Shown: positions 7,732 to 7,960 of the stretch, in pieces
Numbering within the stretch: position 1 is the stretch's first letter
Layout: every line of letters begins with the position of its first letter
Assembly (NCBI RefSeq): GCF_024502345.1
Contig: NZ_JALDNN010000001.1
Strand: one strand, 5' to 3'
Length of the DNA stretch: 64,000 nt
Origin: Escherichia coli
GTDB taxonomy: Bacteria; Pseudomonadota; Gammaproteobacteria; Enterobacterales; Enterobacteriaceae
Made by a program: the position numbers and the translations under genes
Notes under the pieces: generated by a model
Database searches by the model: none
Seen by the model: only the letters and a program-made list of their open reading frames with translations
Told to the model about the DNA's origin: nothing

Positions 7732-7960
7732 AGTATTAACCTTCATCAATGTTTTTACCCGAGAGGGCTGGGGTGAGGCTTTTCCCTCACCCAAACCCTC
7801 TCCATGTGGAGAGGGGCCGCGCCGGATGCGGCGTAAACGCCTTATCCGGCCTACAAGAACGTGCAAATTCAACAAATTGTGATGCATCCTGTAGGCCTGA
7901 TAAGCGTAGCGCATTAGGCAATTAGCCCCACCTTCTCCATGTGGAGAGGGTGGGATTGGA
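7732..7960. repeat. REP/BIME-type palindromic cluster in the mtlA-mtlD intergenic region
   Basis: Inverted REP pair gccggatgcggcgtaaacgccttatccggcctac (7821-7854) and gtaggcctgataagcgtagcgcattaggc (7891-7918), flanked by two copies of the palindrome ccctctccatgtggagaggg (about 7793-7815 and 7929-7950). Confidence 0.6.

Follow-up and report, generated by a model that had tools for sequence, protein, structure and literature searches.

The mtlA-mtlD spacer of Escherichia coli as a probable mosaic of two enterobacterial repeat families around one conserved BoxC-type element

The malE-malF spacer is the precedent for an intercistronic REP stabiliser, with stable stem-loops between co-transcribed genes and a transporter gene upstream. 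In the element called BIME-1, a z1 and a y REP are joined by a long conserved L linker, often with an IHF site, and REPs are stated to stabilise mRNA (PMC3333891). BIME-2 elements are tandem arrays of y and z2 REPs with short linkers, and their copy number varies among strains via recombination among the repeated units. A second family, BoxC, has to our knowledge been known since the 1990s with no assigned function and is described as unstable and strain-variable; the BoxC or PIT element was reportedly treated by Bachellier in 1996 and by Hoyne and Maher in 2000. BoxC, PIT and TMECO are one element, with the consensus CCCTCNCCC N3-6 GGGNGAGGG N3 GGGNGAGGG; 23 copies are listed for K-12, and Salmonella is reported to have none (PMC4666352). 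TMECO forms a stable triplex in vitro, sequence variability is raised within 1-500 nt of its sites, and an earlier report cited in the same work found that TMECO elements block DNA polymerase in vitro (PMC4666352).

Here, we compare the spacer between mtlA and mtlD of an E. coli genome with these systems; "the window" denotes the whole 64-kb stretch of DNA that was analysed. A literature search returned nothing specific to the mtlA-mtlD spacer. The explanation that we favour, and hold to be probable, is that the spacer is a mosaic of these two known enterobacterial repeat families, in which one element, here called B, would alone be needed for a conserved role, and a second hairpin, U, would be a passenger together with the BIME.

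Read in the mRNA sense, the mtlA stop codon TAA is followed by 6 nt, hairpin U, the junction GCTAATTG, the z1 REP and the 36-nt L linker, and then by the y REP, the junction GCGCGG, element B, 26 nt that include the Shine-Dalgarno sequence, and the mtlD ATG (Table 1). The spacer differs from that of K-12 at 7 positions. A preliminary description of this DNA had reported a 229-bp spacer inside the operon, holding a REP pair and a 20-nt palindrome in two copies, each copy embedded in a longer inverted repeat. The spacer and its REP pair were confirmed, and the y and z1 REPs do lie between the two palindromes, in inverted orientation and separated by the linker. Both palindromes are present, but they are not identical: the mtlD-proximal copy, CCCTCTCCATGTGGAGAGGG, is exact, and the mtlA-proximal copy, CCTTCTCCATGTGGAGAGGG, which begins CCTTCTCC, agrees at 19/20 positions, with one mismatch. 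Allowing up to 3 mismatches on both strands, 4 matches were observed, against 0.01 expected from window shuffles. Longer inverted repeats were likewise found at both copies. In U, 13-nt arms (7927-7939/7942-7954) are complementary at 12 positions, but the repeat at the exact copy (7761-7778/7785-7802; 18-nt arms, 89% complementary) overlaps the palindrome rather than enclosing it.

Table 1. Features in and around the mtlA-mtlD spacer of the window; block and loop sequences are given in the mRNA sense
Feature	Position	Strand	Basis or remark
mtlA CDS	7961-9874	(-)	Open reading frame list and mtlA annotation in matching E. coli genomes
mtlA stop codon TAA	7963-7961	(-)	
mtlA-mtlD spacer	7732-7960		229 bp; genes on minus strand
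Hairpin U, CCCACCCTCTCC ACAT GGAGAAGGTGGG (7954-7927)	7927-7954	(-)	Inverted repeat and direct repeat; contains the 19/20 palindrome 7931-7950
135-bp unit (U core, BIME-1 and junctions)	7816-7950	(-)	Direct-repeat spacing of 135
z1-type REP (palindromic unit)	7891-7919	(-)	Sequence; compared with K-12 and the second BIME-1 of the window
L linker of BIME-1	7855-7890	(-)	Match to 28144-28178
y-type REP	7821-7854	(-)	Inverted repeat; aligned to the y hairpin of Rfam naRNA4
Element B, BoxC/TMECO type, 58 nt	7758-7815	(-)	Contains the exact 20-mer 7796-7815
B, block a, CCCTCTCC	7815-7808	(-)	
B, loop L1, ACAT	7807-7804	(-)	
B, block b, GGAGAGGG	7803-7796	(-)	
B, loop L2, TTT	7795-7793	(-)	
B, block c, GGGTGAGGG	7792-7784	(-)	
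B, loop L3, AAAAG	7783-7779	(-)	
B, block d, CCTCACCCC	7778-7770	(-)	
B, loop L4, AG	7769-7768	(-)	
B, block e, CCCTCTC	7767-7761	(-)	
B, GGG	7760-7758	(-)	
mtlD translation-initiation region, TAAAAACATTGATGAAGGTTAATACT	7732-7757	(-)	Shine-Dalgarno GAAGG 7744-7740
mtlD CDS	6583-7731	(-)	ATG 7731-7729; mtlD annotation in matching genomes
mtlR	5996-6583	(-)	

To judge by its sequence, the REP pair is a standard BIME-1 (z1 REP, L linker and y REP; 7821-7925). The two REPs are inverted; the y REP aligns with the y hairpin of the naRNA4 model at high posterior probability, and the z1 REP matches the z1 of a BIME-1 at 28.1 kb, with CCTAATGCG here replacing the usual CCTGATGCG and weakening the hairpin. 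The long linker is also present, in a 35-nt match with 3 mismatches to 28144-28178 that is made up of 18 nt of L linker and 17 nt of y REP. A candidate IHF-consensus-like site, ATTCAACAAATTG at 7867-7879 (+), has 1 mismatch to WATCAANNNNTTR (K-12 copy) and is not significant alone. The pair therefore shares with BIME-1/RIB/RIP elements the inverted y and z1 REPs, the linker of ~36 nt, the IHF-like motif and an extragenic, transcribed position. Unlike them, it lies inside an operon and not at a 3' end, a duplicated hairpin foreign to the BIME flanks it, and, whereas BIME-1 is described as single-copy, it is tandemly duplicated together with that hairpin in one Escherichia lineage; in other E. 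coli it is replaced by atypical arrays of 4-6 REPs. The locus resembles BIME-2 arrays in its strain-variable copy number, but the unit that varies is a BoxC-derived hairpin plus BIME-1 rather than y/z2 REPs with short linkers. Elsewhere in the window we noted a second BIME-1 that shares this L linker at 28100-28235 (-), and two other REP pairs at 19000-19080 and 22860-22945. We also noted that the mechanical mtlD open reading frame (6583-7914 (-), 443 aa) begins at an ATG at 7914 inside the z1 REP; a public protein, P0002 (MtlD of E. coli B354), has the same 443-aa length, so some annotations start MtlD inside the spacer. Small open reading frames in the spacer were rejected as genes, as they run through repeats that are missing from short alleles.

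The preliminary description had left undecided whether the palindrome belongs to a named repeat family. For the mtlD-proximal copy the answer is that it forms the first hairpin of B, a BoxC/PIT/TMECO-type element, and the mtlA-proximal copy lies in what appears to be a partial local duplicate of that hairpin. Like BoxC elements, B is intergenic and consists of a C-rich block, a loop and two G-rich blocks (CCCTCTCC-N4-GGAGAGGG-TTT-GGGTGAGGG). Its b-c part has 1 mismatch to GGGNGAGGGNNNGGGNGAGGG and is the sole such site in the 64 kb, and no canonical BoxC copy was found anywhere in the window. Applied as a regular expression, the strict TMECO consensus matches none of the E. coli variants of B, in which the stems are 8 nt rather than 9 nt, but it is satisfied by 16/45 distinct orthologous mtl copies, all from other lineages, orthologues in Klebsiella, Enterobacter and Cedecea among them. 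The mtl locus is not among the 23 copies listed for K-12 (PMC4666352), which is explained by the 8-nt stems of E. coli, for which the strict pattern failed. The TMECO supplements do not name mtl.

Canonical single copies in K-12 comprise blocks a-b-c only, and canonical inverted pairs read a-b-c...c'-b'-a'. A covariance model of B, which scores 71.2 bits at 7758-7817 in the window, gave 54.8 bits for the inverted BoxC pair between hrpB and mrcB of K-12 and at most 18 bits for single BoxC copies. The b-c arm (L2 = TTT) and the d-e arm (CTG, other strand) resemble the type A + type B inverted pairs of K-12, with the final arm missing. B looks like an inverted BoxC pair truncated in its second copy, where the last arm has been lost. 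It also departs from the family in being single-copy by BLAST rather than dispersed and multicopy, and in its fixed position from genus to genus, TMECO loci having been described as unstable. We conclude that B belongs to the BoxC/TMECO family as a degenerate copy that has not been listed, unusual in its truncated-pair form and in its positional conservation.

Hairpin U, which begins 6 nt past the mtlA stop, appears to be a partial direct duplicate of the a-L1-b portion of B. For 20 nt the duplication is certain and for about 26 nt it is likely, as similarity probably continues into L2 and c (GGAGAAGG-T-GGGG versus GGAGAGGG-TTT-GGGT). The 8-nt stem and, in this strain, the ACAT loop are common to U and B and absent from canonical BoxC, which points to local duplication, and U is not part of the BIME, since the other BIME-1 of the window has no U-like flank. 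The loops of B (7804-7807) and U (7939-7942) are identical here, both ACAT in the mRNA sense. In most E. coli the loop of B reads TCAC and that of U reads ACAT, and 432 genomes share the type of the window; gene conversion between the two copies could have made the loops identical. Among 42 medium-length alleles, 4/28 sites segregate in U, all in the stem, and 3/58 in B, two of them in loop L1 and one at the outermost base, 7815. U appears to be decaying.

Spacer alleles within E. coli fall into a small number of lengths. The 94-bp spacer has no REPs and no U, those of 217 and 228/229 bp have BIME-1 and U, that of 318/319 bp has four REPs and U, and that of 419 bp has six REPs and U; U and the REPs are either both present or both missing. 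Medium and short alleles differ by 135 bp, equal to the direct-repeat spacing, and the 135-bp unit is bounded by a 20/21-nt direct repeat within which its exact ends are ambiguous. In an unclassified non-coli Escherichia (L139, GCA_004212325.1), whose mtlD is 91.7% identical to that of the window, the spacer is 365 bp long (835-1200) and contains two tandem U + BIME-1 units of 135/136 bp, identical at 129/135 positions, followed by B. Spacers of 94, 229 and 365 bp therefore correspond to 0, 1 or 2 units in Escherichia, with boundaries inside the palindrome. Across 5426 genomes, the spacer is of medium type in ~64%, long-type in ~15% and short or other in ~17-21%; these are estimates, as both junction halves of the short allele also occur in medium alleles and a direct BLAST count of short alleles is impossible. 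As part of the favoured explanation, we regard U and BIME-1 as likely to be dispensable, polymorphic passengers, missing from roughly a fifth of E. coli genomes.

These alleles bear on the idea put forward in the preliminary description, namely that the structures set differential mRNA stability. In its fullest form, the palindromes and the REP pair would be one device that shields mtlA from 3' exonucleases and leaves more MtlA than MtlD transcript, which we consider unlikely. The spacer RNA is predicted to be very stable, its individual hairpins are stable alone, and malE-malF offers a precedent. REPs in general are reported to stabilise mRNA (PMC3333891). A fixed composite device nevertheless fits poorly with the lack of U and the REP pair in an estimated 17-21% of E. 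coli genomes and in the majority of other genera, with a REP number that ranges from 0 to 6, and with the apparent decay of U. The likeness to malE-malF also has a limit, in that the conserved part at mtl is a BoxC-type element and not the REPs. The differential-stability idea is a plausible analogy with the known effects of REPs, but B, and not the assembly as a whole, is where it should be directed.

We then compared the arrangement of the spacer across lineages. The distance from the mtlA stop to block a is 8-15 nt in 29 distinct spacers, and since block a lies this close to the stop in many other lineages, the short architecture is ancestral for Enterobacteriaceae. In most E. coli, 145 nt separate the stop from block a. 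REPs occupy this site in three non-coli Escherichia, which indicates that the U + BIME unit is old in the genus; U can be seen in two of them (L139 and L140), and the contig of the third (L007) breaks off within the REPs. The short alleles of E. coli may be secondary losses. They occur on several flanking haplotype backgrounds, and one of them lies 1 SNP from K-12-like medium haplotypes with a different flank, which suggests that this allele was imported by recombination rather than newly deleted.

The slot between the mtlA stop and block a holds, depending on lineage, nothing, one REP (as in Citrobacter, upstream of B), BIME-1, 4-6 REPs, an ERIC-like element or an extra inverted TMECO. The ERIC-like case is in Salmonella Enteritidis (L008, about 984-1118), where an element of ~135 bp with long terminal inverted repeats, containing GTGAATCCCCAGGAGC...GACTGGGGTGAGCG, lies between mtlA and B; we take it to be ERIC/IRU-like. 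In Cedecea neteri (L013, 1020-1075), an extra inverted BoxC/TMECO copy upstream of B produces three adjacent G/C-block hairpins.

This lineage-dependent variety of insertions is what would be expected if B acted at the level of DNA, as a TMECO-type intrastrand triplex or hairpin that stalls replication, so that repeats accumulate upstream of it and U arose via template switching. We treat this as a tentative possibility, one that is compatible with the favoured explanation. The in vitro triplex, the raised variability nearby and the polymerase block are in its favour, but the same work obtained no in vivo evidence of a stable triplex (PMC4666352). Moreover, the stems of B are shortened in E. 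coli, the upstream segment may merely be the one insertion-tolerant place in the spacer, and the strong conservation of B would go unexplained.

On the mosaic explanation, B would be an ancient BoxC/PIT/TMECO-type resident upstream of the mtlD ribosome-binding site, and BIME-1 would have been added upstream of it in the Escherichia lineage. U would have been copied from the first hairpin of B together with the arrival of the BIME, for example through staggered breakage around an extruded hairpin or through template switching at a stalled fork; the latter route would agree with the instability that has been reported near TMECO sites (PMC4666352). Thereafter, the repeated palindromes would recombine or slip against each other and so change the copy number of the unit (0, 1 or 2), and the array of REPs would grow as well, to 4 or 6 REPs.

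Conservation sets B apart from the rest of the spacer. In 8/8 sampled genera of Enterobacteriaceae (Escherichia, Salmonella, Citrobacter, Klebsiella, Enterobacter, Cronobacter, Cedecea and Buttiauxella), B occupies the same position directly upstream of the mtlD ribosome-binding site, with its 3' end about 26-36 nt before the mtlD ATG. These loci were found via MtlD homologues, and presence of the element was not required. A scan of metagenomes with a DNA pattern, which did require block e, added 120 loci with 66 distinct upstream variants, the most divergent lineage of which (L043) was placed within Enterobacteriaceae. In Salmonella, B is retained in a slightly degenerate form. The 26-nt mtlD initiation region that follows B is invariant in the 42 medium alleles of E. 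coli and nearly identical in Salmonella, Citrobacter, Klebsiella and Enterobacter.

Mean pairwise identity, computed across 32-35 lineages, was 0.98 for block b, 0.93 for block c and 0.86 for block d; block e reached 0.96, though its conservation and that of the adjoining GGG are partly built in, because the metagenome search pattern demanded block e. Loops L2 and L3 stood at 0.59 and 0.23, and codon positions 1, 2 and 3 of mtlD at 0.93, 0.95 and 0.58, respectively. The blocks of B are about as conserved as non-synonymous positions, and the loops vary freely. Arranged as the long hairpin b-c:d-e, the blocks pair in 94% of cells, with changes on both sides in 5 pairs, and none of 500 shuffles matched these values; as the structure was derived from the same sequences, these counts are supporting rather than decisive. 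Double-sided variation occurs in c:d and in L2:L4, one pair changed on both sides being GGGAAAGGG/CCCTTTCCC in Cronobacter. The a:b hairpin has 7-13 bp in 45/45 distinct variants, and the C-run of a and the G-run of b are matched in length in 34 of these 45. Conservation of the blocks with few compensatory changes fits a DNA-level or protein-recognition role equally with RNA structure.

A neutral account would hold that all parts of the spacer, B included, are selfish or neutral, and that B is conserved only via BoxC re-insertion or gene conversion. Repeat families are indeed common in E. coli spacers, and earlier tests of BoxC/PIT elements revealed neither promoter nor terminator nor any other activity (PMC4666352). 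Against this, BLAST found B in 5404/5426 complete E. coli genomes, in one copy each, with no cross-match to canonical BoxC, queries for which hit a median of 15-17 places per E. coli genome. B is therefore not refreshed or homogenised by a dispersed family, and gene conversion from dispersed BoxC copies is an unlikely cause of its conservation. Furthermore, the position and the d-e arm are kept in eight genera, including Salmonella, which is reported to lack TMECO (PMC4666352), and the blocks are conserved like non-synonymous sites while the loops are saturated. We therefore find the neutral account improbable. As part of the mosaic explanation, we think it likely that B is under purifying selection and is an old resident of the mtl operon; as the only part of the spacer conserved across enteric bacteria, B alone is the candidate for a real role.

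The single-copy status of B also answers a point of the preliminary description, which had held that a palindrome absent elsewhere in the genome, together with the lack of a stable predicted structure, would speak against its reading. The 20-mer is not a dispersed repeat, yet the predicted structure is very stable, and so only half of this combination was found. The whole spacer transcript was predicted to fold at -107.5 kcal/mol (z = -7.3), and 0/200 shuffles folded as well. Hairpin U (-20.7 kcal/mol, z = -4.6) and the y REP (-21.1 kcal/mol, z = -3.9) gave stable folds, and the z1 REP gave a weak one (-6.8 kcal/mol, z = -0.8). Values of -35.0 kcal/mol for B and -15.8 kcal/mol for its a:b hairpin were obtained.

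As blocks a and e both complement b, B has two folds, either a:b plus c:d or the single long hairpin b-c:d-e. In 66/66 variants, the two conformers were predicted to lie about 0-6 kcal/mol apart, mostly within 4, and which of them is the minimum-energy fold depends on the species. Of the five blocks, b can pair with more partners than any other and also shows the highest conservation, as a constraint from multiple partners would predict; this is compatible with sequence-level recognition too. One could picture B as a two-state RNA switch responding to the end of mtlA translation: the terminating ribosome would unwind a:b, b would then pair with e, and the structure beside the mtlD initiation region would change. 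The availability of two nearly isoenergetic folds in every variant, the standing of block b, the double-sided variation in c:d and L2:L4, the matched length changes in a:b, and the 8-15 nt between stop and block a in the ancestral architecture would all suit such a switch. The bistability, though, is automatic given that a and e both complement b, the distance is 145 nt in most E. coli, and no pairing of e with the Shine-Dalgarno region was found. Predicted accessibility of the mtlD Shine-Dalgarno sequence was the same in all spacer alleles, and no allele-dependent masking of it was seen. Taken together, we rate such a switch as a long shot.

Two further identities were considered for the region and rejected. 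An Rfam search matched naRNA4 (RF02564), a nucleoid-associated non-coding RNA, at 7795-7851(-) with 39.1 bits (E = 7e-6), below the gathering score of 59.5; only the y REP aligns, and the second hairpin of the model is forced onto a:b. Searches for promoter-like (-35/-10, sigma-70) and terminator-like (GC-rich hairpin plus T-run) sites found 0 in 7600-8100, and an internal promoter or terminator in the spacer was likewise rejected. That the region works as a naRNA4-like RNA, or as an internal terminator or promoter, is accordingly a very remote prospect.

With no promoter-like or terminator-like site in the spacer, all its parts are co-transcribed. A role of the mosaic spacer in mRNA stability or processing is plausible: stem-loops on the mtlADR mRNA would act as decay barriers or mark a processing boundary, and the level of mtlA mRNA could thereby be uncoupled from that of mtlD-mtlR. 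A more ambitious reading is that B is an ancient, selected cis-element of mtl, a two-state RNA or single-stranded DNA structure through which mtlA translation or transcription would be coupled with mtlD-mtlR expression or with mRNA processing. We offer this as speculation and think it rather unlikely, but if it were true, it would be the first function for any member of the BoxC/TMECO family, and B could mark the progenitor copy of the family. If there were no effect on expression, this would be an ordinary repeat-laden spacer. B offers a concrete and easily mutated test case for BoxC/TMECO function, given its fixed position, conserved stems and two competing folds. The natural alleles, with 0, 1 or 2 units or 4-6 REPs, are material for measuring what REPs contribute inside an operon, and also suit study of how a BIME spreads with a duplicated target hairpin.

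Finally, we also note a feature of the window outside the mtl operon. Window positions 1-5100 carry genes for a YadA-like adhesin and a DUF3251 lipoprotein where K-12 has the lldPRD-trmL region, and GC drops to 0.33 at 4001-5000. At least 80% of this segment is covered in 479/5426 E. coli genomes, and it is at least 99% identical in only 2.
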